From: Bacteroidaceae bacterium
Lineage (GTDB): Bacteria; Bacteroidota; Bacteroidia; Bacteroidales; Bacteroidaceae
Direction of reading: 5' to 3'
Assembly: GCA_017620295.1 (NCBI GenBank)
Contig: JAFZQR010000097.1
Span: 2,905 to 66,904 of the forward strand
Length of the DNA stretch: 64,000 nt
The position numbers and the translations under genes were made by a program. Shown here piece by piece: positions 10,923-61,318 of this stretch. The notes beneath the pieces were generated by a model that saw only the letters and a program-made list of their open reading frames with translations, was not told the DNA's origin and did no database searches. Each line of letters opens with the position of its first letter. Within the stretch, counting starts at the first letter, position 1.

Positions 10923-10925
10923 AGA

Positions 10926-39228: not shown

Positions 39229-39254
39229 TATGAACTCCCAATAACCTCAAGACC

Positions 39255-44021: not shown

Positions 44022-44097
44022 AGTTGTTGTTATTTGTTTTTGTAGTTGGGACGTCGTTCACGGTTGTGGGTTTATTGTAGTCTTGCCAAGAACTGAT

Positions 44098-46068: not shown

Positions 46069-46069
46069 T

Positions 46070-47677
46070 TCAGCGCATCTGTACAACATTGTGTTTGATG
46101 TTTTTAAAAGCTGATTTCGAGATACAGTTTAACCCTTGTGCTGTCTGTCGTCCAGTTATAGTGGCGTCACTCGTGCTGGCTTTTACGGATGATGACGTTT
46201 TCGCTCTAATCCAACTGTCATTTCCAATATTCCCTTTGCCATCTATAGCCCATGTGCATACAACAAGGTAATCACCATCACGTGGCAAATTCACTCCAGT
46301 CCAATCGAATGTGTCTGTGTTCTTTCCAGTCTTTATCTGATAGTATAGCCAATAAAGATTCCAATGCCTGTCCTCGTTGTATTCATCTTCATCCTCCCAG
46401 CAATCAATATAGTAGGCAGTAGCATTATTGTCAAGGCTAACGTCCCATTGCCATATATTGCTGCCGTCAGAACTGCTCGTTGCCGCCTCAAGATTTGAAA
46501 GAGTCGCAACAGGGAGATTCTTAGACCTCGTGGTGAATTCTTTCTGGATGACTCTGCCTCTGTTGCCATCTGCGTCATAGGCAATGGTGCATAGAACATA
46601 GTCCGTTCCTGCCTTATATGCGTCACCAGTTGATTTCCATATGTAACCCGTCAGATCTTCATTCGAGACTTCCGTCCCTATGTCATTCGACATCACTGAA
46701 ATCAGGTATGAGGTTGATATGGTATCAATGATACTTTTAGGAAGTACTGCATATATGAAATCATGAACATTGGATGTTACGTCAAACTCCGTAACCATAC
46801 CATCTGTGAATTCAAGAAAATCTTTGGCCGTCGCCTCACAGTTTGCTACAACGATGTCACCAACAGTCCAGCCATACACATTGTTATTTGTCGGGATTGT
46901 GAAGAAACCACCCTTACCAACAGGTAGCACACTGGATGATAAAGTACGATAGTAATTCTGGGAATTATTGACGTAAATGCTGAATTGCTTGCTCGTGCTG
47001 CTTGTGCTGTAATCTCCATATATATAAGGCGTGAAGCCTGTGTTATCAACAGTCAGTGTAATGTCTTTTTTTGTTGCTACGGTTGAACCTGTAGAGACGT
47101 TGAGGCTTGTAAAGAACTGGATGCTGTTATCTGAAGCTGGTAGTGTCACGGTTGTGCCTACATTCCCACGGAATCTCATGCGCCAGACATGAGGCTTGAG
47201 TGTGCCTGTGATGTATAGAGCATCTGAAGTGGGGTGCGTGTATGTGCCAGTGGCCTGATATAGCACAGAACTTTCGTTAAGCGTGATGGTGTTACCGCTC
47301 TTTGATACTTGGTTCTCTACATAATATATCTCACATTCGGTATCGCTGATGACAGTTGGCAGTGTGCCAGAGTAAGATACTTGCCAGCCTGATGAGGCAC
47401 TGTAGGATGCTGTGCCAGCAATCGTGCTGGAACCGTTCTTGAAGCGCAGGTATAGGATGCTACCATTGCTCCATGTCTTTGAAATGGCTCTTGTTTCAGG
47501 CGCTTCGTCGTCGAATGATGGCAAATCGCTGTCCCAGTACATTTTACAAGTGTTCGTGGACTCCTGTGTCTCGTCTGGTGTCATGGTAATCTCCGTGTCG
47601 GTGCCAAGGGAACATGACGTGAAGGCTAAGGCTGCAATTATTGCAATACCTGTCAGTTTGAAATGTTTTTTAATCAT
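46070..47677 (-). CDS. Hypothetical surface lipoprotein (535 aa), paralogous over its C-terminal half to 47712-49340
   Basis: Lipobox (ALAFTSC). Shared blocks with the neighbour include GTDYVLCTIAYDADGNRGRVIQKEFTT vs GKNYTIVFIAFASNGKHGSINSQDFST, and IWQWDVSLDNNATAYYIDC vs CYAWDISRGRTTTGYYTYIC. Confidence 0.55.
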   Translation of the reverse strand: MIKKHFKLTGIAIIAALAFTSCSLGTDTEITMTPDETQESTNTCKMYWDSDLPSFDDEAPETRAISKTWSNGSILYLRFKNGSSTIAGTASYSASSGWQVSYSGTLPTVISDTECEIYYVENQVSKSGNTITLNESSVLYQATGTYTHPTSDALYITGTLKPHVWRMRFRGNVGTTVTLPASDNSIQFFTSLNVSTGSTVATKKDITLTVDNTGFTPYIYGDYSTSSTSKQFSIYVNNSQNYYRTLSSSVLPVGKGGFFTIPTNNNVYGWTVGDIVVANCEATAKDFLEFTDGMVTEFDVTSNVHDFIYAVLPKSIIDTISTSYLISVMSNDIGTEVSNEDLTGYIWKSTGDAYKAGTDYVLCTIAYDADGNRGRVIQKEFTTRSKNLPVATLSNLEAATSSSDGSNIWQWDVSLDNNATAYYIDCWEDEDEYNEDRHWNLYWLYYQIKTGKNTDTFDWTGVNLPRDGDYLVVCTWAIDGKGNIGNDSWIRAKTSSSVKASTSDATITGRQTAQGLNCISKSAFKNIKHNVVQMR

Positions 47678-47711
47678 GGTTTATAATGCTTTGTCGTTGA
47701 TTATGTTTCGT

Positions 47712-49340
47712 TTATATTGTCGTATAGTCTGTAAAACCACCTGTTTGGCGGGTGCTGTTGTCAATGTCTGTATCATCATCGAAGTCATCACGTCCGAAAT
47801 CATTTGAGCTGTTGTCTATGTCAGCATCACCATCGAACTCGTCACGTCCGACATCTGTTGAACCTTGATTGTCACTGCCATTGCCTTTCTGATTGATGCT
47901 CACTTCGTATGTACGCCCGCTATTCGTACCCTTAAACGTGATTTTACCCTGTCTGGATGAACCATTGTTGGCAGACACCGTAATGTTTATTGTGGCGGGT
48001 GATGTTCCTGTAGCTTGACAACTAATCCAGGCATTGTCCGAACACGTGGCCGTCCAGTTGTCATTTCCACCAAGGGATACAGTCTTAGTTCCACCAGTTG
48101 CCTCGAAGGATAAGGATGTAGTACTTACTGTAAATGAATATGGGGAAGATGTCTTGAGTTGACCATTCTCTACTTCGTATACCATGTCGTAAACCAGTCC
48201 ACACATGCCATTTGAACTTCGGCTCCATGTAACAATCTGAACATACTTGTCCGAAGGAGAGGCACTGAAATATATTGTTGCGTTGTTGTTTGATTCGTTG
48301 AAAAGGTATTCCTTCCTTACACCAGATCCATAATTGAATGAAGTGGAATGCGAGCTGAAATTGTCGCTTATGTGATCCAGAAATATCTTCCATGCCACCT
48401 TAATGCCATCAGGCTCATGATATTCCGCATAGCCACCCTTGTGCCCTTCCATTGTAGTGAACGATGCTGTGCTGGCACAGATATAAGTGTAGTAGCCTGT
48501 CGTTGTCCTTCCACGGCTGATATCCCATGCATAGCATGATGAGCTTACACCATCTTCATTAACACCTGTTGTAGCCCCCTCATGTGCCATAATGGTTGCT
48601 AATGCTGAACGCTCATCATTCGCCGACGGAGTGCTGAAGTCTTGTGAGTTTATAGAACCATGCTTGCCATTGGATGCAAATGCTATAAACACTATGGTGT
48701 AGTTCTTGCCAGGCTCACAATCGTTGTAGACAAACTCAGGTGCTCCAGAACTTGTGATGTTGATGCGTTCCCAGTCTGAACCAGATTTCGTCGCTTCTTG
48801 ATAGATTGCTTCATTGTTTCCCCTCAGTTCGTTGAAGCGGCTGCGTTCATATACGTTATAAAGTACATAGCTCGTGTTGGAGCTGCTCGTGAGAGTTCCC
48901 GCAATACCATAACACATCACGATATGCAAATCTTCGCTCATGTCCGCCTCACAGTTCGGCTCCCACAGTGCCGCCTGTGTCACTCTTACCGTATCTTTGG
49001 CTTCGCAACCATCGTTGCTTGCCGTCACCACCACTATACACGAACGTTCGGCAATGCTCTCATTGGCCGACATGGTATGTAACGTAATGGTTGTTTTGCC
49101 TGTACCGCTACGGCTAGACGTTTTAAGCCAGTCTTCCCCATCTTCGATGGTCAAGCTCCAACTATAGTCAGTGCGAATCTCGAAGGTCACGGACTCTCCT
49201 GTTCCTGCTGCCAAGTTCAAGTCGGTTGGATTCACTGAAACAGTTGGTTGGGTGATGTCATCATCTGGAGAGCATGCTGCTAACACAATGCAAGTCAGAA
49301 AGAAATGCGTTAAATACCGAATAATTGTAGGATGTTTCAT
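47712..49340 (-). CDS. BACON-domain surface lipoprotein (542 aa) with a C-terminal Asp-rich tandem repeat
   Basis: Lipobox (VLAACS). BACON-like segments lie at the N-terminus (VSVNPTDLNLAAGTGESVTFEIRTDYSWS...TVRVTQ) and near the C-terminus (LSFEATGGTKTVSLGGNDNWTATCSDNAWISC...EVSINQ). Confidence 0.65.
   Translation of the reverse strand: MKHPTIIRYLTHFFLTCIVLAACSPDDDITQPTVSVNPTDLNLAAGTGESVTFEIRTDYSWSLTIEDGEDWLKTSSRSGTGKTTITLHTMSANESIAERSCIVVVTASNDGCEAKDTVRVTQAALWEPNCEADMSEDLHIVMCYGIAGTLTSSSNTSYVLYNVYERSRFNELRGNNEAIYQEATKSGSDWERINITSSGAPEFVYNDCEPGKNYTIVFIAFASNGKHGSINSQDFSTPSANDERSALATIMAHEGATTGVNEDGVSSSCYAWDISRGRTTTGYYTYICASTASFTTMEGHKGGYAEYHEPDGIKVAWKIFLDHISDNFSSHSTSFNYGSGVRKEYLFNESNNNATIYFSASPSDKYVQIVTWSRSSNGMCGLVYDMVYEVENGQLKTSSPYSFTVSTTSLSFEATGGTKTVSLGGNDNWTATCSDNAWISCQATGTSPATINITVSANNGSSRQGKITFKGTNSGRTYEVSINQKGNGSDNQGSTDVGRDEFDGDADIDNSSNDFGRDDFDDDTDIDNSTRQTGGFTDYTTI
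47754..47861. repeat. 2 x 54-nt imperfect tandem repeat encoding an 18-aa Asp-rich unit
   Basis: Copy A (47754-47807) and copy B (47808-47861) encode GRDDFDDDTDIDNSTRQT and GRDEFDGDADIDNSSNDF at the C-terminus of the BACON lipoprotein. Confidence 0.7.
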
Positions 49341-49352
49341 GAATGTTTGTTG

Positions 49353-50795
49353 TTATAAATGTAAATTAAAATGTTTTCTGATAGTACGCCGTCCGATGTC
49401 AGCCTGTTGCAGACCCTCTCCAAGACCTAATGGATGCTTTCTGGCCTCTTCACTACGCTGCTGTCCAATGAATTCATTACCCATAGGCAAACCTTCCGGC
49501 GACGAATAGATTGTCACCAATAATCGTTTCTGTGCAAACGTGTGCCGATATCGTATTCTGAATGTCATCAAACCAGTCTCCCTATCTACGTCGATTTTAT
49601 AGTCATGGGACAACTCCGTATCACCGTTAGGACGAACAATACTCGCCGTTGTGTCGTTAAGTGCACTTAGCAGTGGAACTATGTCAGGACGTACCATTGT
49701 GCCTCTATTCTCTGTACCATTAAAAGAGGGCTTCACTTCATTTGGATGTCTCTGTATTTTATCGCGGACCCAATACGCAGCAGGAAACTCGATGCTTGTA
49801 CTATCCATCGTTATCCTCAGCCCCTGCATAAGAAGTGTCATTTGTAGTGGTAGGTCGTATGTTGCCAATGACAGTGTAAGCGTGTCATTGCCGTATTTTG
49901 TTTCCAGCTTAGCCTCATCTAAAGCTTGTTCTAGAGTGCTTGACTCATCCTCTCTGTCAACATTAGCATTATTCACATCGTCTATTGAGAATTTTTCCCA
50001 GCAGCGAATGTTCGATTGCATCAACTTTATAATGTCTGTTTCCTCGCTCGGATGCCGTTCCCTCTCAAACTGCATCATATCACCTCCGTCAGAACCCTCT
50101 AGTGGAGGCATGTTTGTTCTGTCGTTATCTGAGACAAGACCTATTGTCCATGATGTCCGTAGCTTACGAGTCTGCATCAGCTCATCTTTTGGCAGAAGCA
50201 CATAAAAATTGATGGCAGCTTTTTCACGGTCTAGCTCTATATGGAAACGCTGAAAACCCAATCTGCATTCAGATCTACCTTTACGGAATATCGCACCTTT
50301 TCGGTTAAGTTCAGTTATCAAAGGTGAAATGTCAGGCCTAACGTCAGAACCATGTTCGGCATTATCATCTGGACAGAGAGTCTCTAACTCGTCCCTTACA
50401 TCCAATGCTGATGGCAACCTTATCTCATAATGTTTCCGCTTGCGTCCTGTCGGGTCAATGATAATCGATGTGGGTTGCATTAGTAGCCTCATCTGAATTG
50501 CAGGATGAGCCACAGACAAACACACCAGCATGTTTTTGTCATCTGTAGCAAGGTTTAATACAGTACCCTCATGGAGAATATTGATGGCCACGGAGTTCGG
50601 GCATGCGGAGATGAATGCTTTTAGCGAGTCGGTTGGATGTCCAATTGTATCCATGCATTCTATAAGAGATCCGCGGACATGTGCAACAGATGCCATATAC
50701 AACAGCAATAGAAATATCACTTCTTTGTAGTATATGCTTCTTTCTTCATGGCTTTTCTCAACCATTTGAGAGGGGCTTGGATTGAGGTTGTTCAT
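49353..50795 (-). CDS. Hypothetical exported protein (480 aa) built from an internal duplication
   Basis: N-terminal hydrophobic anchor (VIFLLLLYMASVA). The two halves share QMxLLMQ...I..D, VRPDI(S/V)PL(I/L) and ID(L/V)DRE blocks. Confidence 0.5.
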   Translation of the reverse strand: MNNLNPSPSQMVEKSHEERSIYYKEVIFLLLLYMASVAHVRGSLIECMDTIGHPTDSLKAFISACPNSVAINILHEGTVLNLATDDKNMLVCLSVAHPAIQMRLLMQPTSIIIDPTGRKRKHYEIRLPSALDVRDELETLCPDDNAEHGSDVRPDISPLITELNRKGAIFRKGRSECRLGFQRFHIELDREKAAINFYVLLPKDELMQTRKLRTSWTIGLVSDNDRTNMPPLEGSDGGDMMQFERERHPSEETDIIKLMQSNIRCWEKFSIDDVNNANVDREDESSTLEQALDEAKLETKYGNDTLTLSLATYDLPLQMTLLMQGLRITMDSTSIEFPAAYWVRDKIQRHPNEVKPSFNGTENRGTMVRPDIVPLLSALNDTTASIVRPNGDTELSHDYKIDVDRETGLMTFRIRYRHTFAQKRLLVTIYSSPEGLPMGNEFIGQQRSEEARKHPLGLGEGLQQADIGRRTIRKHFNLHL

Positions 50796-50802
50796 ATTTA
50801 TG

Positions 50803-53562
50803 TCAATGGTTTGTGTTCAGATTGTAAGTGAAAGAAAGCATCGCATAGCGTCCAAGTATATTGGTTGTTACCTCTCGTCGATACAGTTCGGTAGTTGTCT
50901 GATAGAAACTGTTGTCTTGATCAAGCATGTCATGCAGAGAGAAACGCAGTTCACCTCGTTTGTCCTTCATACATTTGTAGGCTAGGGCTATATTGCTAAT
51001 TGTAGCGTTGAATTGGGATGTGCCAGATCCAAAGTAATTAGTGCGCCCGCATTCCAGTACCAATTTCAATTGAGGCACGAACTGCCAGTTCAGTTGTGCG
51101 CCATAGGATAGCGACCAGTAGTTCACGTTCATATTATCAAATGTCATGTTAGCACTGGAATTATATACAGTATTAATATCTACCACGAAATCCACATCCT
51201 CGCTTATGTTGCTGCCCATAGTCGCATTCGCACTCCAGTTCCATTGCTCGGTGAACTGCTTATGGTTGTCCCAATAGCCAGGTGTCTTCGTATATTTTAC
51301 CATTGATGAGAGATTTACATTTGAACTTGCCAATGATAAAGGAAAACCGTAAGCCACAAGGGATGTCCAACTGAAAAATCCGTCTGTGTTCTGGTATGAA
51401 AGGATTTGCGTGTTCCGTCGTTCTCCTTCACCTTGAAAACTCTCTGATGACAGCGACCTTAACGAGCCTATATAGTTGTCTGATTGTTCCAGATTGTTGA
51501 AGAAAACGAATACAGCACCTGTTGAGGATATTGGCATAACCAATCGTGATGTGAGGTTATGGTGGTATGCGGGTTCCAACCACAGGCTTCCCCTAATAGC
51601 CATAGTAGCGTTTGAATTGTTGATAACATCATGCACTTGAGCCAACCCTGGATATTTGTGAGATGCTTTATACTGCACGTGTAGTTGAGACCTGTTGAAA
51701 TGATACCTTAGGAATAGGTATGGCAGAGGGGTAATGTAGTTTCGCTTGAGATAATAGAGGTCGTTGCTGTTATACAGATTATATCTTTGCACTTCAATAC
51801 CAGCAACCATGTTCACTTCTCCCATATTCATTAGCCAAGCCATGTTTGCTTGCCATCCCCCGAAATTTGACCACGTCGAACCACTCAGAAGAGAGTCTGT
51901 AGAATATACTGAACTCCCGGCTGTCATCATGTCTGTGCGGCGACGCATCATACCAAGGGTTTTGCTCCATCCTATGTCTAATTTCAGACGGTGATGTCTG
52001 CCTAATGCGTGAATATATGACAGCATATAGGTGAAAGAACGTTGCTTGTTTATCACCCCAGTGTTCTGTTGTGCTGCTTCGCCGCTTTGTACGTTGCTGA
52101 AATCCATATATATGTCTTCATCAGTACGCATATATGAGACACGTGCATCTGCTGTAATGACATGTCCGCTGCGACCAAACCGATGCATGAACATGGCCTC
52201 TCCAGATGTCGAGAGAACAGATTGGTCAGTGTTTGTCATCTGCTGTAATAGGTGAGCTGTGTCTGTTGCTGTTACTGTCCAGGCCGTTATGTTCGAGAGT
52301 TCGTCCTTACCTTGATAGGCGAGTGCAGGACGTAACAGGATGTAGTTTAATGAGTCTATTCGGAACTCATATTTAGCGTTGAAACGATGGTTGAGGTTTG
52401 TATTATCTACAGTCTGTGCTTGTAGATTGTTGGATGCCGTGGCACCAAAGTAACTATCATATATATCATAGCGAGTGTGGTTATCTGAATTGTTATATAG
52501 ATAATGTCCAGAGAACTTCATCTTACCCTTATCCCATTCATCGGAGTAATTGGTTCCTGCTGCGCGTGATGTGGTAATGCCATAATCGCTTACATCTACC
52601 ATCATCGATGAGATGTCGTCTGAGGTTGTTGGATGGAAATTATTTGTGTTCGAACCTTTGGCGTATGGTGATTGTGAGGGAGCACTGGTGGAGGCTGTTC
52701 CTGTCACACTCAATAGGTCAATCATTGAGAAATTCTGCTCGTTTATGTTGTTCCATTGTGTGAACAACGACCATCTTTGATCGTCATTGAACCAATTGTA
52801 CATACCGTATAGTTTGTACATATTTTTTACGCCTGCCCCTGCAGTTGCTTTGCCAAAATGACTGTGGGCTGTGCCTTGACGAGTACGTATATTTATGGTT
52901 TTTTGTGTGTTTCCATCATTAAAGCCTGAGAGTTCGGCATAGTCGGAAAGCTTGTCGTATATTTGTATTTCACTAATTACGTGGGCTGGGAGATTTCTCA
53001 GGGCCATATTGACATCTCCCCTAAAGTATTCTCGACCGTCAATCTCAATGCTTTTGACTTCTTCACCGTGTGCCATTAGTTTGCCGTCTTTCATCCCAAC
53101 TCCGGGAAGCTTTTGAGATAGTAGGTCGTAGGCTGTGGCGTCTGCATGCACTTTGTACGAACTGGCAAAATAAACGGTTGTGTCACCTCTCTGTGTAACA
53201 AGAGGTACTCTACTTCTGACAACAACTTCTGATAGTTCTGATTCGTTTGGGGTTAGTTCGATGTCGAGATGCAATTGTTTTTTATTGGCAATCACAACTC
53301 TTGTAGTTGGAGTAAATCCCATATATGTAACTTTAACTGTTGTGTTGGTGCCGCGTGGCATGGAAAAGGTATAAAACCCTTTGTCGTTAGCTACACATAC
53401 TTTCTTCTCACCGCTAATGCTATATGAAATATTTGCTCCTGGCAGGGCTATTTTATCCTCAGAATCGGAAATGATGCCTGACACTGTGCATGTCTGGGCT
53501 GACAGTCGCATAGTAATAGGAATCATTAGTATTAAGAATATATGTTTTACTTTTAATGGCAT
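50803..53562 (-). CDS. Outer-membrane beta-barrel family protein with CarboxypepD_reg-like and plug-like N-terminal domains (TonB-dependent-receptor-like)
   Basis: Signal peptide. CTVSGIISDSEDKIALPGANISY...VKVTYMGF is the carboxypeptidase-regulatory-like fold. Then a plug-like DLLSQKLPGVGMKDGKLMAHGEEVKSIEIDGREYF and ~700 aa of barrel ending ...LSFTYNLNTNH. Confidence 0.7.
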   Translation of the reverse strand: MPLKVKHIFLILMIPITMRLSAQTCTVSGIISDSEDKIALPGANISYSISGEKKVCVANDKGFYTFSMPRGTNTTVKVTYMGFTPTTRVVIANKKQLHLDIELTPNESELSEVVVRSRVPLVTQRGDTTVYFASSYKVHADATAYDLLSQKLPGVGMKDGKLMAHGEEVKSIEIDGREYFRGDVNMALRNLPAHVISEIQIYDKLSDYAELSGFNDGNTQKTINIRTRQGTAHSHFGKATAGAGVKNMYKLYGMYNWFNDDQRWSLFTQWNNINEQNFSMIDLLSVTGTASTSAPSQSPYAKGSNTNNFHPTTSDDISSMMVDVSDYGITTSRAAGTNYSDEWDKGKMKFSGHYLYNNSDNHTRYDIYDSYFGATASNNLQAQTVDNTNLNHRFNAKYEFRIDSLNYILLRPALAYQGKDELSNITAWTVTATDTAHLLQQMTNTDQSVLSTSGEAMFMHRFGRSGHVITADARVSYMRTDEDIYMDFSNVQSGEAAQQNTGVINKQRSFTYMLSYIHALGRHHRLKLDIGWSKTLGMMRRRTDMMTAGSSVYSTDSLLSGSTWSNFGGWQANMAWLMNMGEVNMVAGIEVQRYNLYNSNDLYYLKRNYITPLPYLFLRYHFNRSQLHVQYKASHKYPGLAQVHDVINNSNATMAIRGSLWLEPAYHHNLTSRLVMPISSTGAVFVFFNNLEQSDNYIGSLRSLSSESFQGEGERRNTQILSYQNTDGFFSWTSLVAYGFPLSLASSNVNLSSMVKYTKTPGYWDNHKQFTEQWNWSANATMGSNISEDVDFVVDINTVYNSSANMTFDNMNVNYWSLSYGAQLNWQFVPQLKLVLECGRTNYFGSGTSQFNATISNIALAYKCMKDKRGELRFSLHDMLDQDNSFYQTTTELYRREVTTNILGRYAMLSFTYNLNTNH

Positions 53563-53583
53563 ATAGGTCTTGTGGTGTTACTC

Positions 53584-54453
53584 TTAGTGTGTTATTATTA
53601 TCAGCAGTCCCAATATTGCAATGGCAGATCCTATTATCTCTCTTTGAGTGGCTCGCTCATGGTTGATGATGAAGGCAAATAAGAGTACGAATACAGGTTC
53701 CATTGCAGATAATATGGATGTGATGGATACGCTGGTATATTTGATTGCGAGCATGGATAGAAGAAACCCTCCTAATGTTACAACAATGACATTAATGATA
53801 AACTGCAAAAGAATGCTGCAATTGGATAGTGGCTTTATCCAAGGGGTGATATTATGGGTGGTAACACCGATGAAGAGTACGGAGAGTGTGCCGGCTACCA
53901 TACGATAGTATGTTGCTGTGAGGACCTGGACATCTCCGATAGTTATCTTAACCATAATAGATGAAAAGGAATAGCATAGGATAGAGAGCAGGCCTAGAAT
54001 GATACCCCTTTTCTTGTTGGGATGGTCTTCCTGTTTGCCTATGATGACGATTAGGATTCCGGAGAGGAGAATGACAGCTCCGGCGTACTGCCTTATTGAG
54101 AGTATATCTCCCAAAAGGATAAATGAGAGGAACATCGTGACAACCTGTCCGAGCATGAAGTAGAGTACTTGTGTTTTTGCTCCAAGGTCTTGAAGTGAAT
54201 GGAAGAAGAGCGAGTCTCCAATGCCTATTCCAATTATTCCGCTGATGACTAGGATTGTAGCTGCTTTGAGTGTTAGTGCGGTGAGTCCACCCATAGGAAT
54301 TATGAGTAATGTCATAATGACAATGCTAAAAGTTCCTTTGAGGAATGTGATGCCTGCGTATGGTATTACCTTCCCTAATCGGTCGAAAAGCACCGTTGCA
54401 AAAGCCCAGGATGCGGTCGAGAGGATTGCTGCTGATATGCCGATAGCTTCCAT
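53584..54453 (-). CDS. EamA/DMT-superfamily transporter
   Basis: 289 aa with ten hydrophobic segments in two similar halves, the typical DMT layout. Confidence 0.7.
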   Translation of the reverse strand: MEAIGISAAILSTASWAFATVLFDRLGKVIPYAGITFLKGTFSIVIMTLLIIPMGGLTALTLKAATILVISGIIGIGIGDSLFFHSLQDLGAKTQVLYFMLGQVVTMFLSFILLGDILSIRQYAGAVILLSGILIVIIGKQEDHPNKKRGIILGLLSILCYSFSSIMVKITIGDVQVLTATYYRMVAGTLSVLFIGVTTHNITPWIKPLSNCSILLQFIINVIVVTLGGFLLSMLAIKYTSVSITSILSAMEPVFVLLFAFIINHERATQREIIGSAIAILGLLIIITH

Positions 54454-54466
54454 TGTTAGGGGGGTG

Positions 54467-56539
54467 TCACGGTACTAGTTTGAATCGTAGTAGGTATCGC
54501 TGAGGTATTACTTGTATGTAGTCAACAAGCTGGAAACCATAGAATGACAGCTGTCTTTCTATGAGGCGTCGGTCGATATATGGTCCATGATAGGGTAGGG
54601 TGTCATCGCAGACAGGGCTGTTGTCAACGATGATTAGTTCGCCGCCTGGTTTGAGCTGTTCAACCAGTGAGGTTAGATAAGTATGTCGGTCGTTGTCGGG
54701 TATAACGCCATATAATATGTGGTATAGCGAACACATGAACATGATGTCCACTTGTTCTGGGAGCTTGAGTATATCCTCTTTTCCGCGAATAATTCTAATA
54801 TTGCTTATTGAGTTCTCTGTTATGAATGACTGTAGTCTGTTTATGTGTTCCTCTTTTAACTCTAGTGCATAGACGATACCCTCGTCTCCGGTCATTTCGG
54901 CAAATTTGGTTGTGAAAAATCCGCTTCCTGATCCAATGTCTGCAACTTTCATTCCTGCTTTAATGGGTATGTTACTAAGGATAGTCTCTGTTTTTTCCCA
55001 TTGTGGTCGAAGGGGATTGAGAGCAAGTATATAGTCTTCCAGATAGGAACGGTGTGTTCGTCCTACCTCGCCACTCATCTCCAGAAGAGAGTCTGATATC
55101 ATTCTAATAGAGTCGTTTCCGAGTTTGTACTTATGCAAGAGATAGTATCGTATGATATTGCAGCTATCTGCTGTGAGATAATTGTAGAAACTGCGTGTCA
55201 GTGGGGCTGTCAGCATTGTTTCTCGTTGTTCTGCTGTTGCGAGTCTGGCTTTGCAAAGCCACTGTAGCGCAGAGTATTCCCCTCCAAAATTCTCTTGTGG
55301 TATGAGTTCTTCGTATTTACGTATTGCGATTTCGGCAAGTTCGGGTTGGCCTCCGCCCATGAAGTCGTATACATACTGCGCAGCGTCTATGCCACGGTCT
55401 GTAATGTCATAGCTGTCAAGGCTACCGATGTGTATAATAGACTGTTGATTCTCGATTGAGAGATTGGGCTGGTGTGATGAAACTTCTGCGGATAAATGTG
55501 GCTGATAGGATTGGTCTTGTTGGAATATCATCATGTACCTCTGGTTGCTCAAAGGCAGTATGCTCTTACGCCGAAATCCCCAATATGCAAGTTGTGCCTC
55601 AACCAATTGCGGGTCAACATGACAGTTGTTGAGTTCCATTCCGTGAAGGTTGTAGTTATCCACAACCACTATATATCCATTTTTGTGGAGGTGTTCCTTG
55701 ATGGATGAGAGTAACGACTTCCGCTCGTCTTCGCGCGACCACGTATATATAATATGGTATAATGAACTTATGAGAATGCAGTCAACTGTGTCCTCTATGC
55801 CTAATGTGTTGGTTTGGGTGTTTATGGCGATAACATTGTGTATTCCGTTTCGGACCATGATGTCGTTGACATACTTGATATATGACTGTTCTGTGTCTGT
55901 GGCATATACGATTCCTTTTTCGCCTACACGCTCAGACAGCCTTAATGTGTTGTATCCGAAACCGCATCCCATATCTACGACCTTTGAGCCATTGGATATT
56001 GGCAGCATGTGCATGATTTGTTCAGTGTGATCCCATTTGTTGCGTGTTGGGTCGTTGAACATAAGCATGTCGTCATAATAGGTGCGTTTTGCGATGTGTA
56101 GTTTCACGGAGCGGGGTTTATATCCGTTAAGCTCAAACTTTAGCACGAGATACTCTTTCAGTTTGTAGCATTTGTTGTCTGTGAATTGGCGGTATAAATC
56201 CTCAGTCAGAATGTCTGCTTGGTCGATGAACTGTCCCTTGCGTTCTTCGAGCATTCTATTAAGGATGTATGCCAGTGCGCCCCATGCCTTTTCCTTCTGA
56301 GTGTCATCTGCCGCCTTTCTGGTCCAAGCTCTGCATACGTACTCTATAGAATCTGGATGATTATTGTCCAAAGCGTTGAGTAGGGTATAAGCGAGTGTCG
56401 TATCTCCGGAGTCCGTCGGATGTGGATTCATACCGACTCTAACCAGTGAGGATGCATCATTGATAGCGATTTCGAACTGCGCAGAAGCCATTAGAGAGCT
56501 TATGGAGGTAATAATAAATAGAATGTGTCGCTTGATCAT
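54467..56539 (-). CDS. Tandem double class I SAM-dependent methyltransferase with an N-terminal signal/anchor sequence
   Basis: Two Rossmann motif I copies (VVDMGCGFGYNT, VADIGSGSGFFT), each followed by IVYA(T/L)(D/E) and (I/V)VVDN blocks. The N-terminus is MIKRHILFIITSISSLMASAQ. Confidence 0.75.
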   Translation of the reverse strand: MIKRHILFIITSISSLMASAQFEIAINDASSLVRVGMNPHPTDSGDTTLAYTLLNALDNNHPDSIEYVCRAWTRKAADDTQKEKAWGALAYILNRMLEERKGQFIDQADILTEDLYRQFTDNKCYKLKEYLVLKFELNGYKPRSVKLHIAKRTYYDDMLMFNDPTRNKWDHTEQIMHMLPISNGSKVVDMGCGFGYNTLRLSERVGEKGIVYATDTEQSYIKYVNDIMVRNGIHNVIAINTQTNTLGIEDTVDCILISSLYHIIYTWSREDERKSLLSSIKEHLHKNGYIVVVDNYNLHGMELNNCHVDPQLVEAQLAYWGFRRKSILPLSNQRYMMIFQQDQSYQPHLSAEVSSHQPNLSIENQQSIIHIGSLDSYDITDRGIDAAQYVYDFMGGGQPELAEIAIRKYEELIPQENFGGEYSALQWLCKARLATAEQRETMLTAPLTRSFYNYLTADSCNIIRYYLLHKYKLGNDSIRMISDSLLEMSGEVGRTHRSYLEDYILALNPLRPQWEKTETILSNIPIKAGMKVADIGSGSGFFTTKFAEMTGDEGIVYALELKEEHINRLQSFITENSISNIRIIRGKEDILKLPEQVDIMFMCSLYHILYGVIPDNDRHTYLTSLVEQLKPGGELIIVDNSPVCDDTLPYHGPYIDRRLIERQLSFYGFQLVDYIQVIPQRYLLRFKLVP

Positions 56540-56596
56540 GTTGTATGCGTTGTCTGAGTGTGTAGGTTCATATCGTGTGTCAAGTAATGATTCCGC

Positions 56597-58012
56597 TCAG
56601 ATGTTGAAAGGATTCAGACTTCCTTCCATGAAATCTTTGCGAGGGAATGATTGATGTTGGGGCTCATAGAATAGATGCACAATTTCGTCGCTGTAGAAAG
56701 CTCCCGTGGGAGTCAGCTCAACTCGCTTGTCGTCTTCTGTGATGAGCCCATATTGTAGTAGCAAGTCAAACTGACGTCGGAAAAGTTGGCTGACATCGGC
56801 ACCTTGGTTAAGACGTTGGAAAAGCTGTTTGTCAATGAAATAGTTCTTGAGTGGCAGTATAGTGGACCATCGTGCTTGCTGGTCGGCGTTGCGGATAAGG
56901 CAGCGGTTGGCTGCAATCATCCCCTGCTCTGTCCGTTGGTAGTACTCGGCGAAATCAGGTGTGTTTATCATGAATCGGTCGTTGAGGCTGCTAAAAGCAG
57001 AAAGTCCGAATCCGACCTCGTCCTTGAGCCTACAACACTGGTTGTAGGCGTAGAGAGAAATATTTTTCCTGTTTTTCGTGAATACTCGGCGAAGGTTTTC
57101 TTGGTATCCGTGGTCTGCAAGTATTAGGTCGCTGATCTCTTTCATGCGGATAGTGTCCTCCACAGAAATCAATTCATCCTCATGGTAGGCTGAGAACTTT
57201 TTGATGGTTCCCTCTTGATCTCCGTAAGGCTCGATTTTCAAACGGTATAGTTGAATTTCGTCCGTACCTAAGCTGCAAGCTTCCTCCATGACATCAATCC
57301 AGTTTTGAAGTGTCTCTCCTGGGTGTCCATATATGAACTCGATGTTCACTTTGAAACCCATGTTGAGACAGTTCTGTATAGATTCTTTTGCTACTGCAAC
57401 ATCATGGGAACGGTTCATTTTTCGCAGTACAGCATCATTCAGCGACTGAATACCTATGGTAAGTCTATCGCCTTGATAGTCCTTTATAATTCTGAGTCGT
57501 TCCAAGCCATCTTCCCCTACAAGTGTGGATGGATCCACATCCCAGTTGAACTGTGGACACGAGGTGATGTCTACATACTTCGTGAAGAATGTGAGGAAAC
57601 GTTTTAGCTGAGAGGGTGATAAATCCGTTGGCGTTCCACCTCCCATCAGTATTGTTCGGCTCTTTATTCTCTCGATGCCGCGGAAGGATAACCAGTTACG
57701 CATCTCCATCTCCAAATGGTCAAGGTATATGTCTTTCTCACTCTCACTGCAGTGATAGTGGCTGGGGTAGTGGCAGAATAGGCACCGGCGGTGACAGAAT
57801 GGGATGTGGACATAGACATCGAACTTTCTAGTCTCCAACTCATGGAAGTCCCTATACGCCTCTTCAGGTGGAATTGGAGGGTAGTTTGTTATTGGGGGGT
57901 AGTGAACTCCTGCAGGGCTGAAGTCCCCATGCCTTGGAATCAGTCCCAGTCTTTGATATTCCTGAAATTCTTGCCAACGTGGGGTGGAAAGGGCTATGTA
58001 ATCTCTTTGCAT
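56597..58012 (-). CDS. HemN-like (class C) radical SAM enzyme, coproporphyrinogen-III-oxidase family
   Basis: VYVHIPFCHRRCLFCHY CxxxCxxC cluster motif, GGGTP, and a HemN_C-like C-terminus. The track start at 58039 is TTG; the first ATG is 58012. Confidence 0.8.
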   Translation of the reverse strand: MQRDYIALSTPRWQEFQEYQRLGLIPRHGDFSPAGVHYPPITNYPPIPPEEAYRDFHELETRKFDVYVHIPFCHRRCLFCHYPSHYHCSESEKDIYLDHLEMEMRNWLSFRGIERIKSRTILMGGGTPTDLSPSQLKRFLTFFTKYVDITSCPQFNWDVDPSTLVGEDGLERLRIIKDYQGDRLTIGIQSLNDAVLRKMNRSHDVAVAKESIQNCLNMGFKVNIEFIYGHPGETLQNWIDVMEEACSLGTDEIQLYRLKIEPYGDQEGTIKKFSAYHEDELISVEDTIRMKEISDLILADHGYQENLRRVFTKNRKNISLYAYNQCCRLKDEVGFGLSAFSSLNDRFMINTPDFAEYYQRTEQGMIAANRCLIRNADQQARWSTILPLKNYFIDKQLFQRLNQGADVSQLFRRQFDLLLQYGLITEDDKRVELTPTGAFYSDEIVHLFYEPQHQSFPRKDFMEGSLNPFNI

Positions 58013-58080
58013 ATCATTATTTTTTTCTGTTGACACCAATTAATACGGAAGCTCAATTGGTAATGCTCTTTAAATAATTC

Positions 58081-59097
58081 TTAAAGTGCGTTGTCCGTGG
58101 TCATGCCAGCTCGTGCCAAAATATCACGGAAATGGTCTGTCTGTGGACGGATACGCTTCGATGAGTATATTGGGAAATGTTTTTCCAACTCAGGTGGTGT
58201 GCCATCGTGTACAGTTACAGTGTTGGCACCAGCCATGAGTCCCAAGTATTGTCCATCCGGTATCATCTTCTCCAGAGAACTAGTCGTGGGCATATATCTA
58301 TGAGGATTCATTATTCGTAGTAGTGCCATCATGTTCAACGTCAGGTTGGCATCGCCGGAAGGCTCGTTGGCAAACTCTGAGTTCTCTGCAGGGATGAAGA
58401 TGGTGGTGCTGTTCATGGCAAGCGGGAGCTCATGGGCTAAAAGCAAATCCTGTACTAAGTCCGACAATGTCTGACGTGGCAGCCCCACAATGTTTCCAGA
58501 GCCAATGTTGAAGCCAACGTCATGAAGCGTCTCAATACAGCTCAAACGGTTCGCCAGCGTGTCATTAGGCTTGCAGTAGGAGAACAGCGACGCATTAGAT
58601 GTCTCAAACTTCAGAATGTAGTCAGATGCACCTGCATCGTGTAGGTCGGAATATTGCTCGCGTTGTAAATTGCCTAGGCACAGGATAATGCGTAGGAATG
58701 GGTATCTGGCCTTTGCTCTTGCAACAGCCTCGGTTACATCCGATATGAATGTGTCGTTGACGTTCTCTCCCGACTGTAAAAGTACAGTCTTTCGGCCATT
58801 CTCTACAAGGTGTGAAATGAGACGGAACATAATATCTGCACTCAGCGTGTAATTGAGTGCTTGGTCCTTACCGCCTATTGCACAATAACGGCATTTCTGG
58901 CGGCATACGTTGGACACCTCAATCACACTTCTTACCTGAGCATCATTGCGCGGAAAGCATGCCAGCCGCTGCTGACGTGCCATGGCGAAGAGCCGTTGCT
59001 GCGCTTCGCCTCTGGCCGTCAGTGCTTCTGAGAGTGTGTCTTCACTGTAGTCCTCACGGGCAAGAGCCGTGAGGAAAGATAACCCTTGGCAGCCCAT
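58081..59097 (-). CDS. HydE/BioB/PylB-like radical SAM enzyme
   Basis: SNVCRQKCRYCAIGG cluster motif. LQSGEN, KFETSN, RLSCIETLHDVGFNIGSGNIVGLPRQTLSDLVQDLL and LTLNMMALLRIM align by eye with Thermotoga HydE as I recall its sequence. Confidence 0.75.
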   Translation of the reverse strand: MGCQGLSFLTALAREDYSEDTLSEALTARGEAQQRLFAMARQQRLACFPRNDAQVRSVIEVSNVCRQKCRYCAIGGKDQALNYTLSADIMFRLISHLVENGRKTVLLQSGENVNDTFISDVTEAVARAKARYPFLRIILCLGNLQREQYSDLHDAGASDYILKFETSNASLFSYCKPNDTLANRLSCIETLHDVGFNIGSGNIVGLPRQTLSDLVQDLLLAHELPLAMNSTTIFIPAENSEFANEPSGDANLTLNMMALLRIMNPHRYMPTTSSLEKMIPDGQYLGLMAGANTVTVHDGTPPELEKHFPIYSSKRIRPQTDHFRDILARAGMTTDNAL

Positions 59098-59101
59098 TAT
59101 T

Positions 59102-59734
59102 CTACTCGTTTGGCTTGTCCCCTTTGTCGCCGTCGAACTGTCGCATTGCGAAAGTCAAATTAATCTTTTCCGCCGTCAGCGACTGTAGATACATGTCTTT
59201 GGTTATCCAGTCACGCTTGCCGTGATTGCTCACGGTGAAGCGGGCTGTTTCCGTGTAGGTCGTACTCTGGTGGTCATAGTAGTGCTTTGCCCTATAGACA
59301 TTAAAGTTCTGGTCCGTGTAGTTCAGGACAGAGTCTACTTCACAAGTATAAGTTACGACACCATTCTTATAGGTGTATGTGCCGTATTCACTCTCAAACA
59401 ATCCCTTCTTGTCATTTATTGTACCAACAATCTGATTTACGTAGGTGTAATTGGAACGTAGGACTAGTGTACGAGTTATATCTGTGTTTTTCTTCTGGAT
59501 GGCATCCCAGCCGGTATACTCTCCCACCCACGTCTTCTGGATGTTTGACAGGCTTGGAGTGAAAGACGCGTCAACTTTGAATTGGGTAGAGTCGTTCCAT
59601 GTGATAGCATTTTCATTTTGATTGTCATCCAAGTTGATTTTTGTTTCGTCATCTCCATCATCGCCGCATGAAATGAAATAGCTCGTTGTCATGGCCATAA
59701 CAGCCACAAATAATAGATTGAAATACTTTTTCAT
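59102..59734 (-). CDS. Lipocalin-like family lipoprotein (paralog 3), first gene of the locus
   Basis: The ATG at 59734 gives the lipobox MKKYFNLLFVAVMAMTTSYFISC; the track start at 59851 adds 39 non-signal residues. Motifs TWVGEYTGWD, TRTLVL, EYGTYTY and VDSVLNY. Confidence 0.6.
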   Translation of the reverse strand: MKKYFNLLFVAVMAMTTSYFISCGDDGDDETKINLDDNQNENAITWNDSTQFKVDASFTPSLSNIQKTWVGEYTGWDAIQKKNTDITRTLVLRSNYTYVNQIVGTINDKKGLFESEYGTYTYKNGVVTYTCEVDSVLNYTDQNFNVYRAKHYYDHQSTTYTETARFTVSNHGKRDWITKDMYLQSLTAEKINLTFAMRQFDGDKGDKPNE

Positions 59735-59989
59735 AATAGATAATGATTTGTTGGTAAATATGTTAGATTCTGTATTCGTCCATATTTGTTTGCCAGCACA
59801 TTGGTGCTGTTGAATTATCAGAGATGGCTCATCTGCAACCTTAATATCCAAAGTGGTTTAATGACCTATGGCTTGGGAGATGCTGCGATACACAACTGCT
59901 ATAGGCTGTACTCTGAGTAAAAACGATGCGATGATTACTTCTTATGCCCCTAATCCCCTGAGAGGCTGGTTGATATTTGAGGCTACGAC

Positions 59990-60031
59990 AAAAAAAAGAC
60001 GTGGGAACTGTCTCTGCTGCTCGTCCCACGT
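59990..60031 (-). terminator. Intrinsic terminator (8-bp stem, 17-nt loop, U8)
   Basis: On the minus strand, ACGUGGGA...UCCCACGU (plus-strand 60024-60031 / 59999-60006). A run of eight U follows 1 nt after the stem (plus-strand A-run 59990-59997). Confidence 0.65.
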
Positions 60032-60440
60032 ATAGAGGCTCTCGCATTGCCCGGTTTAGTTGAACGAGCAACGCTGATAGCCCACGCCGACATGTATATA
60101 TCAGTCTCCAATATAATTGTCATTGACGCGTGTATCAATAGACTAAACTACACGTCTTCATTGGAGATGAGTATAAACACATCCCGAGGACATCCACCGT
60201 TGCCTCGTCATTGACTAAACCAAGAATTTGCGAGATTCCTATACGTCAAAGACAAGACGCCTGAAGACGCCTTTTAATATGTCGTGACTCCTAATCCCGC
60301 CCACATCGGTAATTTGCAATCTTTACCAGAATAGGTTCAGATTCACCGATGCCTCCCGCCTTTGGACGGTATGTCATTTAATACAACCAGTCGTGGCTCG
60401 GCGTGGGCTCTGATGATATAGAGTCGCTACAAAAGTCGGT
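59990..60440 (-). ncRNA. Candidate structured noncoding RNA, or a long structured 3' UTR of the B3/4-domain gene
   Basis: ORF-free region. A 12-bp perfect long-range helix (60079-60090 / 60398-60409) encloses nested helices at 60106-60112/60160-60166, 60125-60134/60149-60156 and 60304-60310/60345-60351. It ends in the terminator. Confidence 0.3.
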
Positions 60441-60652
60441 AAAAATGCGAAAATGGACAAAGAAATACACGAAAAAAACAAAGTGATATGCTGAAGAACA
60501 TAAAAACAATCGTTAGCAACAGCACCTCCGCTAAGTCATTCGCAAACATAATAAGTCCATTATTGATGTTAAAGATGTTGATATGCCATTCTGAAACCTA
60601 AATCGACAACATGGTTATTTATCATTTGAACACCAACAGGTTAGTTCGTTGC

Positions 60653-61318
60653 TCATCTATAGATGAAGTATGTTCCGCCATCGCTCTGACAATACTTGCG
60701 GAGAAGGTCCTGAATATACTCCGCATTCTCCCTTACACGTTGTTCGTTGCCGTCATAGCCGTTGATTAGTACAACCAGATGATGTGTGCTATTGGAAATC
60801 TTTGTGCGCTCGTTATCGCTTGTTGGCGTTCCCACACCTCCTATGGTATCACGATAGACAGGCAACCCCTGGATATTAATCATCCCACGGCCTATGCCCT
60901 CGTATGGCTCGCCCTCACGTCCAATGCCTAATGTAAGTGTGTCGCCCACAAACTTGTCGGCGTCAAAACCGCCTATGCTGTAGCCGTATGCTATTGACGC
61001 CAGGTTTACGAGATCGACAAGAGTATTCAACTGATATAGTTCCTTGCCTTGAAGCACACGACGGATGAGTGCTTCTGATGCTGGACGGTATCTTGACGGA
61101 TCCTTGCCACAGGCCTTATAGACACGGCGTGTAGCAGCGATGCTTGTTATCTCCTTCAGCGATTCCGTGGTCAATTCTTCACGGAACTTATTGCAGAAGG
61201 CATCAATGTCCTGCCAGAGCAGTTCATTATAAGGGGTGTTGACAACAATAGCATCAACACATGCTCCGACAAATTCGGGACATACATTCTCTATATCCTG
61301 AGATACTATAACCTTCAT
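60653..61318 (-). CDS. B3/B4 tRNA-binding-domain protein (PheT-beta-related)
   Basis: RPASEALIRRVLQGKELYQLNTLVDLVNLASIAYGYSIGGFDADKF matches the B3_4 domain pattern as I recall it. 221 aa. Confidence 0.6.
   Translation of the reverse strand: MKVIVSQDIENVCPEFVGACVDAIVVNTPYNELLWQDIDAFCNKFREELTTESLKEITSIAATRRVYKACGKDPSRYRPASEALIRRVLQGKELYQLNTLVDLVNLASIAYGYSIGGFDADKFVGDTLTLGIGREGEPYEGIGRGMINIQGLPVYRDTIGGVGTPTSDNERTKISNSTHHLVVLINGYDGNEQRVRENAEYIQDLLRKYCQSDGGTYFIYR

Follow-up and report, generated by a model that had tools for sequence, protein, structure and literature searches.

Genes for two radical SAM enzymes, an EamA permease and a predicted exported methyltransferase-fold protein form a recurring cassette in gut Bacteroidales and other anaerobe lineages

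What could two radical S-adenosylmethionine (SAM) enzymes have in common with a methyltransferase that appears to leave the compartment in which SAM is found? The question is raised by a 64,000-nucleotide stretch of DNA from a Bacteroidaceae bacterium (GenBank assembly GCA_017620295.1, contig JAFZQR010000097.1, positions 2,905 to 66,904 of the forward strand), the whole of which is called the window below. An earlier note, made from the sequence alone, had singled out in it a HydE-like gene, a HemN-like gene and the gene for a tandem methyltransferase with an apparent signal peptide. These three genes are the enzymatic core of an unbroken run of 12 genes on the minus strand (43320-59851, from the open reading frames (ORFs) of the 64-kb window). 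The three ORFs did not arise by chance, because they are long, give strong profile matches and are kept in hundreds of metagenome proteins. The note had overlooked the run, which spans the cell envelope, the EamA permease that is a conserved member of the unit, and the recurrence of the cassette across many lineages. Our tentative answer, which we would put at a little below an even chance, is that the trio forms the enzymatic core of one pathway making a small molecule that is finished outside the cytoplasm.

The methyltransferase gene (54467-56539, minus strand) encodes a 690-aa protein that starts MIKRHILFIITSISSLMASAQ. The two Rossmann methyltransferase modules that had been read from the motifs VVDMGCGFG and VADIGSGSG are present in this ORF, which gave two separate class I methyltransferase Pfam matches (approximately residues 172-300 and 520-640). 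Homology between its halves (E 2e-40, with 29% identity across 241 aligned residues) marks the protein as an internal duplication of a unit of ∼335 aa. In the AlphaFold2 (AF2) model (pLDDT 81.6) each unit consists of a helical domain of ∼150 aa, with six or seven helices, and a Rossmann methyltransferase domain. Foldseek searches with the model returned only generic small-molecule methyltransferases (3dh0 with a TM-score of 0.74-0.77, the DnrK type below 0.5) and no informative match for the helical domain. When 18 orthologues were aligned, motif I was invariant in both modules (D189/G191/G193/G195 and D534/G536/G538/G540), as were the beta-2 acid (D215/E560), the beta-4 Asp (D253/D598) and a His 73 residues past the motif I Asp (H262 and H607). 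Both modules have the fold and the motifs of class I SAM-dependent methyltransferases; what departs from that class is the location, since the conserved Sec-type signal predicts that the protein lies outside the cytoplasm, where SAM is.

The N-terminus reads MIKRH-ILFIITSISSLM-ASA followed by QFEI, which fits the Q-rule for Sec/signal peptidase I (SPI) substrates, i.e. the small-x-small site followed by Gln of Bacteroidetes signal peptides (PMC5837995); the exported proteins of the run fit the same type of site. A hydrophobic N-terminal region followed by A-x-A and Q occurred in 16 of 17 orthologues, the exception (P0083) being N-terminally truncated. All 16 orthologues whose N-terminus is covered by the alignment have a charged n-region and a hydrophobic core, mostly followed by small-x-small and Q, in letters that vary: it is the first 20-30 residues that differ, and the conserved mature start (Y/F-x-I...SSLVRVGM) comes directly after them. 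The predicted signal peptide is therefore genuine and not a wrongly called start, the worry that the earlier note had set against its own suggestion of a cleavable signal peptide; that suggestion is borne out in the orthologues, and the wider family for the most part likewise begins with an export signal or an anchor. Even if the segment were uncleaved, its positive n-region would leave the methyltransferase domains outside by the positive-inside rule. In NCBI the public record gives the protein as 674 aa beginning at M17; it starts 16 residues too late, without the first 16 codons (window 56492-56539), and so hides the signal peptide; the longer start is backed by the orthologue alignment.

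The HemN-like ORF can be read from a TTG (56597-58039, 480 aa), and because the orthologues begin at M(x)RDYIALS the ATG at 58012 is its likely start (56597-58012, minus strand). The CxxxCxxC cluster CHRRCLFC, reported earlier, is present (FCHRRCLFC) and reads CHRRCLFCHY, without the fourth Cys of Escherichia coli HemN (CHKLCYFCGC). The 480-aa protein matched Radical_SAM at 82 bits and HemN-family models at 125-162 bits, each time below the cut-off: 162.5 against 380 for STM4012, 135.6 against 205.4 for HemW (TIGR00539), 131.8 against 400 for ChuW/HutW (TIGR04107) and 125.4 against 324.95 for HemN (TIGR00538). The same was true of the whole set formed by the window protein and ten cassette homologues, which scored 140-181 bits on STM4012 (cut-off 380), 124-174 on HemN (325), 108-163 on HemW (205) and 117-144 on ChuW/HutW (400). 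Among PDB sequences the window protein aligned to E. coli HemN (1OLT) with 96 bits and to NocN with 55. Approximately 70 residues ahead of its cluster motif align to HemN residues 10-50, i.e. it has the HemN-type N-terminal extension, which HemW lacks. With all of the curated models failed and this extension in place, the protein, predicted to be cytoplasmic, is a member of an orphan HemN-like clade and not a HemW; the possibility raised in the earlier note that it groups with the haem chaperone did not hold (135.6 bits against 205.4, and the extension). It is also the best-conserved member of the cassette, at 44-58% identity to the window protein. In one orthologous locus (L006:8535-9981) frameshifts or assembly errors have split the gene into three ORFs.

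The HydE-like gene (58081-59097, minus strand) encodes 338 aa and has the second of the reported clusters, CRQKCRYC (VCRQKCRYC). Its product matched Radical_SAM (58.6 bits) and, weakly, the BATS domain. Against NCBIfam it scored 191.1 bits on HydE (TIGR03956, cut-off 254.6), 92 on BioB and 67 on PylB, and against solved structures 176 bits to Thermotoga maritima HydE, 49 to BioB and 37 to PylB. It combines the CX3CX2C motif with a BioB/HydE-type barrel and, in an alignment to 8qmk_A, places M228 opposite M224 of T. maritima HydE, the Met that binds the Fe(CO)2CN fragment (PMC10114646). It has neither C-terminal auxiliary-cluster cysteines nor an N-terminal hydrophobic segment and is predicted to be cytoplasmic. 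Like the window protein, its Bacteroidales and Firmicute-type homologues, at 196-204 bits, do not reach the HydE cut-off. Across the cassette the homologues range from 186 to 268 bits; L024:8895-9917 (268) is the only one to pass, with L026 at 247 and L025 at 237, though all three are linked to the cassette. Cassette HydE-like proteins thus lie on both sides of the annotation threshold, so that some will be mislabelled as hydrogenase maturases.

Domains of hydF, hydG or an [FeFe]-hydrogenase (hydA) were not found in the window ORFs of at least 300 aa, nor were hydG, hydF or hydrogenase found among the Pfam-annotated neighbours in loci L017, L018, L024 and L025. In more than 40 loci of varied order the neighbours were instead HemN-like, methyltransferase and EamA genes, and with its score below the HydE cut-off this upholds the earlier claim that the enzyme stands outside a context of H-cluster maturation. 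In a neighbour-joining tree, which took in T. maritima HydE as the single true HydE, the cassette HydE-like proteins formed two deep clades to which that sequence was about equidistant (31-41% identity). Clade A occurred only with tandem methyltransferases (8/8) and clade B mostly with single-module ones, which suggests co-evolution inside the cassette. A solitary HydE-like gene, 63-65% identical to that of the window, lies on Firmicute-type contigs (L015:10001-11014, L019:8001-9014) between a diacylglycerol-kinase-like gene and rplU-prp-rpmA-obg; it nests in the Bacteroidales clade and was probably acquired by horizontal transfer of a single gene.

A HMMER search of 1.84 billion representatives returned 92 clusters of methyltransferase relatives at E<1e-30. 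Some members of this wider family are tandem proteins (27-41% identity); others, of ∼350 aa, have a single module and align to residues 357-688. All 20 of the members inspected begin with a signal peptide or a transmembrane (TM) anchor. On two unrelated contigs a single-module methyltransferase gene lay amid HydE-like, EamA and HemN-like genes. A metagenome scan from a 5-sequence alignment gave 233 relatives, from which 80 loci with GC contents of 0.33-0.67 were kept. Neighbours were counted in the 21 non-redundant loci that extend for at least 5 kb to either side: a HemN-like gene was present in 18, an EamA gene in 17, a HydE-like gene in 13 and all three together in 12. Gene order and strand differ among the loci, which argues for selection on the linkage rather than shared ancestry of one operon. 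These comparisons show that genes for a HydE-like enzyme, a HemN-like enzyme, a predicted exported methyltransferase and an EamA permease make up a four-gene cassette that recurs across many anaerobe lineages.

The permease gene of the window (53584-54453, minus strand) encodes a two-domain EamA protein of the drug/metabolite transporter (DMT) superfamily (PF00892, 117 bits, two matches), predicted to lie in the inner membrane. A simple hydropathy scan found nine hydrophobic segments, consistent with the ten-helix drug/metabolite exporter (DME) type. In all Bacteroidales loci that reach far enough it adjoins the methyltransferase gene, in some with a gene for a 205-aa protein between the two. 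Its presence tracks the export signal. Among non-redundant loci with at least 3 kb of flank, where signals were called by anchoring on the motif and checked by eye, EamA was in the locus in 20 of 21 cases in which the methyltransferase had a signal or anchor and in none of the three in which it had neither (Fisher p = 0.002). The signal-less proteins are the tandem methyltransferases of L091/L093, L095 and L102, and also of the shorter-flanked L096, L100, L101, L103 and L105. In the former (L091:8518-12052, L095:9161-13301, L102:9992-14129) there was no EamA and no HydE-like gene; the HemN-like gene adjoins the methyltransferase gene, and the pair is flanked by genes for an FHA-domain protein, a zinc-ribbon Ser/Thr kinase and a PP2C-like phosphatase, with ribosomal protein genes nearby, in a Firmicute-like setting. 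Because it is kept in these Firmicute-like loci without EamA, the HemN-like/methyltransferase couple is the deepest pair of the cassette, and because EamA follows the signal it would seem to be needed only when the methyltransferase is outside.

The loci differ in what accompanies the core. Fourteen loci contain genes of the MacA/MacB efflux type, which in L075 separate the HydE-like gene from the HemN-like one; pumps of the MacB type drive their substrates out of the periplasm, so their presence fits a last step there. In 23 loci a gene for an LTXXQ/Spy-like lipoprotein lies ahead of the HydE-like gene. L037 and L086 encode an APC amino-acid permease after the methyltransferase, and L086, of low GC, also has a TonB-type barrel. 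Three high-GC loci (L066:9062-11050, L067:9356-11047, L099:7881-11260) have a low-complexity, Gly/Pro-rich linker of 100-250 aa between the signal peptide and the methyltransferase domain, and in L099 two linker-bearing methyltransferase genes stand in tandem.

The remaining genes of the 12-gene run, all on the minus strand, belong to the cell envelope, and the two radical SAM proteins are the only products of the run without an N-terminal hydrophobic signal. The first gene (59102-59737), which stops 4 nt short of the HydE-like start, encodes a lipocalin-like lipoprotein (lipobox ...YFISC, then GDDGDDE). Its AF2 model (pLDDT 76.7) is an all-beta antiparallel barrel for which Foldseek returned Bacteroides lipocalin-like proteins, ToxS/VtrC, nitrobindin and siderocalin, a likeness at the level of fold (E ∼3e-3, TM-score 0.43-0.50). 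Two paralogues lie at the far end of the run: a second lipocalin-like lipoprotein (45454-46089, CACIPDDDD), for which BLAST returned the first gene, 43320-44021 and homologues of the first gene from 14 loci, and a third, exported one (43320-44021, cleaved after ALSA before Q; E 5e-15 to the first gene, homologues in 14 loci). Downstream of EamA is an outer-membrane beta-barrel resembling TonB-dependent receptors (50803-53562; CarbopepD_reg_2 and OMP_b-brl_3), which, like the third paralogue, has a cleavage site between A and Q (signal peptide ...RLSA, then Q). Pfam detects no Plug domain in it, and TonB dependence is accordingly something that we infer. PDB sequence searches with the barrel and with EamA gave no matches. 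An exported protein of two repeats and unassigned fold follows (49353-50795; halves 30% identical, E 1.5e-10), which matched nothing in Pfam or the PDB; its counterpart in most other loci is a pair of genes whose products each have a signal peptide. Next come a probably surface-exposed BACON-domain lipoprotein (47712-49340; LAAC, then SPDDD; PF13004, 52 bits) with homologues in most orthologous loci, and a probable accessory lipoprotein (46070-47677; FTSC, then S), which has no Pfam match, is weakly similar to the BACON lipoprotein in a self-comparison of the window and has homologues downstream in L007, L014, L011 and L002. The exported protein encoded at 44098-44883 has a signal peptide and no Pfam match, and is homologous to the product of a gene of ∼290 aa that lies elsewhere between the two half-genes (L004, L013, L006, L008, L010). 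Three lipoproteins of the run carry acidic residues directly after the lipid-anchored Cys, in Bacteroidetes a mark of export to the surface.

A scan of one genome per species found 14 orthologous loci, of which 13 are from metagenome-assembled genomes (MAGs) of uncultured Bacteroidales from animal guts; the remaining one, binned as Lachnospira, is probably binned wrongly. Gene order was identical in 12 of the 14, and the other two are short fragments compatible with that order. The TonB-type barrel is kept in every locus long enough to show that gene. A homologue of the first gene lies upstream of the HydE-like gene in most loci (none was detected in L009/L010 by the same search), and in some an extra exported protein of 205 aa is encoded between the methyltransferase and EamA.

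Upstream of the run, at 59988-60094 on the minus strand, is a conserved structured leader RNA of ∼107 nt, first spotted by eye and then described by a covariance model, R1, built from three copies (119.8 bits for the window copy). Its three nested helices have GGCAAUGCGAxxGCC as their apical hairpin, a U-run comes after the closing stem, and the distance from the element to the first gene of the run downstream is 5-360 nt. R1 found independent copies ahead of the orthologous runs in L017 (76 bits), L121 (66), L116 (53) and L106 (48), and a 5'-truncated one in L004; the leader-bearing loci found in this way are L017/L018, L121-126, L116-120, L106-115 and L004. Copies are located at L007:6118-6224, L006:6770-6878, L017:8589-8696, L121:1815-1921, L116:1614-1717, L106:1536-1642 and L004:1-64. 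In the alignment of seven variants (A8), which was fitted to the covariance model and so favours the structure, 92.8% of cells were paired, against 43-52% when the partners were slid, and ten pairs had changed on both sides, against 4.9 ± 1.5 after shuffling (one shuffle in 500 reached ten). R1 found no leader in eight of the Bacteroidales loci searched, and no upstream k-mer of at least 8 nt was common to the loci.

Control of the run by a known riboswitch was rejected, Rfam 15 having given no gathering-threshold match in the window, none at E<=1 in the upstream region (59700-60700) and none in 19 cassette loci. In most copies an alternative local hairpin can use the same 3' strand of the leader. 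A simple terminator scan of 59600-60700 gave no match, the loop of the local hairpin being beyond its limit, so that the label "terminator-like" is owed only to the stem and the U-run. A sigma-70-like match (TTGATA-17-TATATT, 60138-60110) lies just upstream. The leader is a candidate attenuator or riboswitch, with a small RNA gene as the alternative; as a candidate new class of regulatory RNA it matters also because its ligand could identify the product of the pathway or the cue to which it responds.

Elsewhere in the window, a 1389-aa ORF (15191-19360, minus strand) combines an FtsW/RodA/SpoVE region (residues 555-744) with a penicillin-binding transpeptidase (1045-1356), an unusual fusion if it is a single gene. 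A minus-strand stretch of envelope-lipid genes (4126-12932) encodes a lipid A acyltransferase, an EptA-like phosphoethanolamine transferase, two more sulfatase-family proteins and an ABC exporter with a fused membrane domain. The type IX secretion genes porV and that of a C25-peptidase (PorU-like) lie at 29103-34133 (minus strand), and two adjacent large DUF4842 proteins are encoded on the opposite strand at 36922-41354 (plus).

How might the parts work together? The predicted topology is that of two cytoplasmic enzymes, one inner-membrane permease and one exported methyltransferase-fold protein. In the pathway that we favour, the first steps would take place in the cytoplasm, where the two radical SAM enzymes would work on a small precursor (an amino acid, perhaps), with the HemN-like enzyme carrying out class C one-carbon chemistry. 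EamA would then move the intermediate, or SAM, outward across the inner membrane, and the exported methyltransferase-fold protein would perform the last step, of an alkyl-transfer type, either (a) by resolving a SAM-substrate adduct made by the HemN-like enzyme, in which case no free SAM would be needed outside, or (b) by using SAM supplied by the EamA permease. Each option has a precedent: C10Q resolves the SAM-substrate adduct made by the HemN-like C10P and was purified without SAM (PMC6050322), and a protein with two EamA domains is a bidirectional antiporter of SAM and S-adenosylhomocysteine (SAH) (PMC3104491). HydE chemistry involves addition of 5'-deoxyadenosyl to sulfur, yielding S-adenosylcysteine from thiazolidines (PMC10114646), and, more speculatively, the HydE-like step could make an adenosylated species that the methyltransferase fold recognises. 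The product would be secreted, other lineages having MacAB-type pumps in or beside the cassette, and in Bacteroidales it would be recaptured by the TonB-type barrel and the lipocalin-like lipoproteins, as a metallophore or other shared good. The leader RNA probably controls the operon.

Several observations weigh against this pathway. Each of its mechanistic steps is read from context, and export of the methyltransferase is a prediction from sequence. In the one case studied, SAM-adduct intermediates were unstable (PMC6050322), which makes transport of such an adduct questionable. The window EamA matches no SAM-transporter model, its NCBIfam matches being generic only. A third of the well-flanked loci are without a HydE-like gene, and a Prevotella MAG locus (L013:1-2600) has the gene run without it, so the HydE-like enzyme is a less certain member of the core. 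The window cluster showed neither a Fur/Zur-type gene nor a metal-related one, and systems for nutrient uptake alone just as typically combine a TonB-type barrel with surface lipoproteins.

This last point leads to the alternative that fares best of four, though we think it unlikely, namely uptake followed by salvage or degradation: the barrel and lipoproteins would capture an external compound, e.g. a tetrapyrrole or haem, the exported methyltransferase-fold protein would bind or modify it in the periplasm, EamA would import it and the radical SAM enzymes, with the HemN-like one in a ChuW-like role, would process it in the cytoplasm. The window cluster does include a TonB-type barrel with at least five exported or lipoproteins, its first gene has a lipocalin/nitrobindin-like barrel, and CbiT was among the best matches of the methyltransferase (66.9 bits, cut-off 78.3). 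The HemN family is moreover tied to tetrapyrroles, with ChuW/HutW genes in haem-uptake operons (PMC10114718). However, outside Bacteroidota the core cassette occurs without a TonB-type barrel or importer, and the transporter that is present in some cases is of the efflux type (MacAB). None of the 11 HemN-like proteins came near the ChuW/HutW cut-off (117-144 bits against 400), and the absence of EamA from loci with a cytoplasmic methyltransferase is easier to reconcile with biosynthesis, in which the radical SAM step comes first and the methyltransferase second, than with import. Haem degradation of the ChuW-like kind was rejected on those scores and for want of companion genes.

The close association of EamA with the methyltransferase could alternatively mean that EamA, as a SAM/SAH antiporter, feeds a true periplasmic methyltransferase that acts on an envelope component or on an exported protein or lipid, the radical SAM genes making or repairing the acceptor or being loosely linked; we rate this a shade less likely than uptake. 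The methyltransferase-EamA adjacency is among the tightest and commonest, EamA tracks the signal peptide, both modules have complete SAM-binding motifs, an antiporter of the EamA type exists (PMC3104491), and protein isoaspartyl methyltransferase (PCMT)-like matches were obtained (E 2.4e-15). Yet of the 21 well-flanked loci 18 have a HemN-like gene and 17 have EamA, so that the former is no less constant a neighbour, and it stays when EamA is absent; efflux pumps and a TonB-type barrel suggest a small molecule that diffuses; and full-text phrase searches gave no bacterial periplasmic SAM-dependent methyltransferase.

The conserved HemN-like/methyltransferase pairing would also suit a cytoplasmic C10P/C10Q-like pair which, with the HydE-like enzyme, serves a natural-product pathway, the methyltransferase being anchored uncleaved at the cytoplasmic face of the membrane. 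Relatives with N-termini resembling TM anchors (P0268, P0289, L028-L031) and the predicted cytoplasmic location of the Firmicute-type relatives speak for such an arrangement, but the n-region, h-region and small-x-small site before Q predict either an N-in/C-out orientation or cleavage, with the catalytic domains outward in both cases. It would also leave the strict co-occurrence of export signal and EamA unexplained, and the window contains no polyketide synthase (PKS), nonribosomal peptide synthetase (NRPS) or other scaffold genes, so we regard it as improbable. That the HydE-like protein is simply the true [FeFe]-hydrogenase maturase of the organism, in a neighbourhood without functional meaning, is very improbable: its 34-41% identity to T. 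maritima HydE, its retained Met224 equivalent (M228), the cassette homologues that reach or approach the HydE cut-off (268, 247 and 237 bits) and the 65%-identical solitary copy on a Firmicute-type contig are outweighed by its association with HemN-like, methyltransferase and EamA genes in >40 loci of varied order, the restriction of clade A to tandem methyltransferases, a score of 191 bits against 254.6 and a window without hydF, hydG or hydA.

An analogy with arsenic metabolism, in which ArsS/ArsL, ArsM and a permease occur together, was rejected. ArsL has its motif at residues 194-201 and a mass of 47.5 kDa, the permease is of the GntP type, and the ArsM-type matches of the methyltransferase were generic, at 66-68 bits against cut-offs above 500.

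The pathway that we favour would be new as a whole rather than in its parts. The superfamilies of the parts are known, as is the HemN-like/methyltransferase pairing, with one studied precedent; not found described were the exported methyltransferase, its obligatory DMT partner, the HydE-like member and the cross-lineage cassette. The titles and abstracts of the literature searched for this gene combination contained no description of the cassette, which probably, for that reason, specifies a secreted metabolite of a new kind. Phrase searches on periplasmic or secreted methyltransferases yielded no bacterial periplasmic example, and those on HydE-like proteins nothing relevant. SAM-dependent methyltransferases are treated as cytoplasmic, and here is a family that is consistently predicted to be exported, together with a DMT permease and an orphan HemN-like enzyme, which raises the question of whether SAM or a SAM adduct crosses the bacterial inner membrane for periplasmic chemistry. 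In its fullest form, which we find possible but doubtful, the answer would be an undescribed route that carries SAM-derived alkylation out of the cytoplasm: a widespread family of Sec-exported methyltransferase-fold proteins would work in the periplasm, EamA would export SAM or the HemN-like adduct, the product would be a new secreted, possibly metal-binding, metabolite and, in gut Bacteroidales, a leader RNA, possibly a riboswitch, would exert control. Within this route the HydE-like enzyme may add a 5'-deoxyadenosyl or sulfur-linked group. Periplasmic chemistry with SAM or a SAM adduct would be categorically new if demonstrated. The cassette appears to be common where oxygen is lacking (gut, rumen, peat, sediments, digesters). 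Because its gut Bacteroidales version comes with uptake machinery, members of the microbiome may share the compound or compete for it.

Among known systems the closest in gene pairing is the CC-1065 cyclopropanase C10P/C10Q, in which a HemN-like gene is likewise paired with a gene for a class I methyltransferase fold. C10Q has a SAM-site Asp and a downstream His (D61/H138, spacing 77) to which D189/H262 and D534/H607 (spacing 73) correspond, the equivalence being one of spacing only, and it works on a SAM-substrate adduct and not on free SAM (PMC6050322). Here too, in the Bacteroidales loci that span both, the HemN-like gene lies next to a methyltransferase-fold gene that keeps the Asp and the His. 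Unlike C10Q, the cassette methyltransferase is predicted to be exported, is in many cases duplicated and has modules of ∼330 aa that include a helical domain specific to the family, and unlike C10P/C10Q the unit includes an EamA permease and a HydE-like enzyme and lacks a PKS/NRPS-type cluster. The two C10 proteins act together in the cytoplasm on a natural-product scaffold; with the methyltransferase outside, as its signal predicts, a cytoplasmic complex of that type could not form, and the trio is not surrounded by the polyketide or non-ribosomal-peptide genes that the natural-product context proposed in the earlier note would lead one to expect. The analogy drawn there therefore stands in its pairing, which is the most deeply conserved link and makes it a reasonable mechanistic lead, and falls as regards a cytoplasmic two-enzyme complex.

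HydE is the closest characterised relative of the 338-aa protein (176 bits), which shares the (beta-alpha)8 BioB-like family and the Met224 equivalent with it and for whose reaction HydE chemistry is a plausible model; unlike HydE, the protein is below the equivalog cut-off, has no hydF, hydG or hydA nearby, lacks the auxiliary-cluster cysteines and has other conserved partners. The cassette HemN-like proteins differ from ChuW/HutW in score (117-144 bits against 400) and in setting, as there is no ChuX/ChuY, ABC importer or periplasmic haem-binding protein and the core cassette occurs without a TonB-type barrel in other lineages. The cntOLMI opine-metallophore operon of Pseudomonas encodes a TonB-dependent receptor, two biosynthetic enzymes and an EamA-family exporter. 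The Bacteroidales version of the cassette resembles it in that genes for small-molecule enzymes share a transcription unit with those for an EamA/DMT permease and a TonB-type barrel, and differs from it in that the enzymes are radical SAM proteins and an exported methyltransferase, with regulation seemingly through a leader RNA and not a known Zur/Fur box; Pfam and NCBIfam found no nicotianamine-synthase-like protein or opine dehydrogenase in the cluster. The permease itself has the Pfam architecture of two EamA domains that is found in the SAM transporters CTL843 of Chlamydia and RP076 of Rickettsia, the former of which moves SAM and SAH in both directions (PMC3104491). Those transporters import SAM from the host and the cassette EamA is proposed to work outward, so that the likeness is one of domain architecture.

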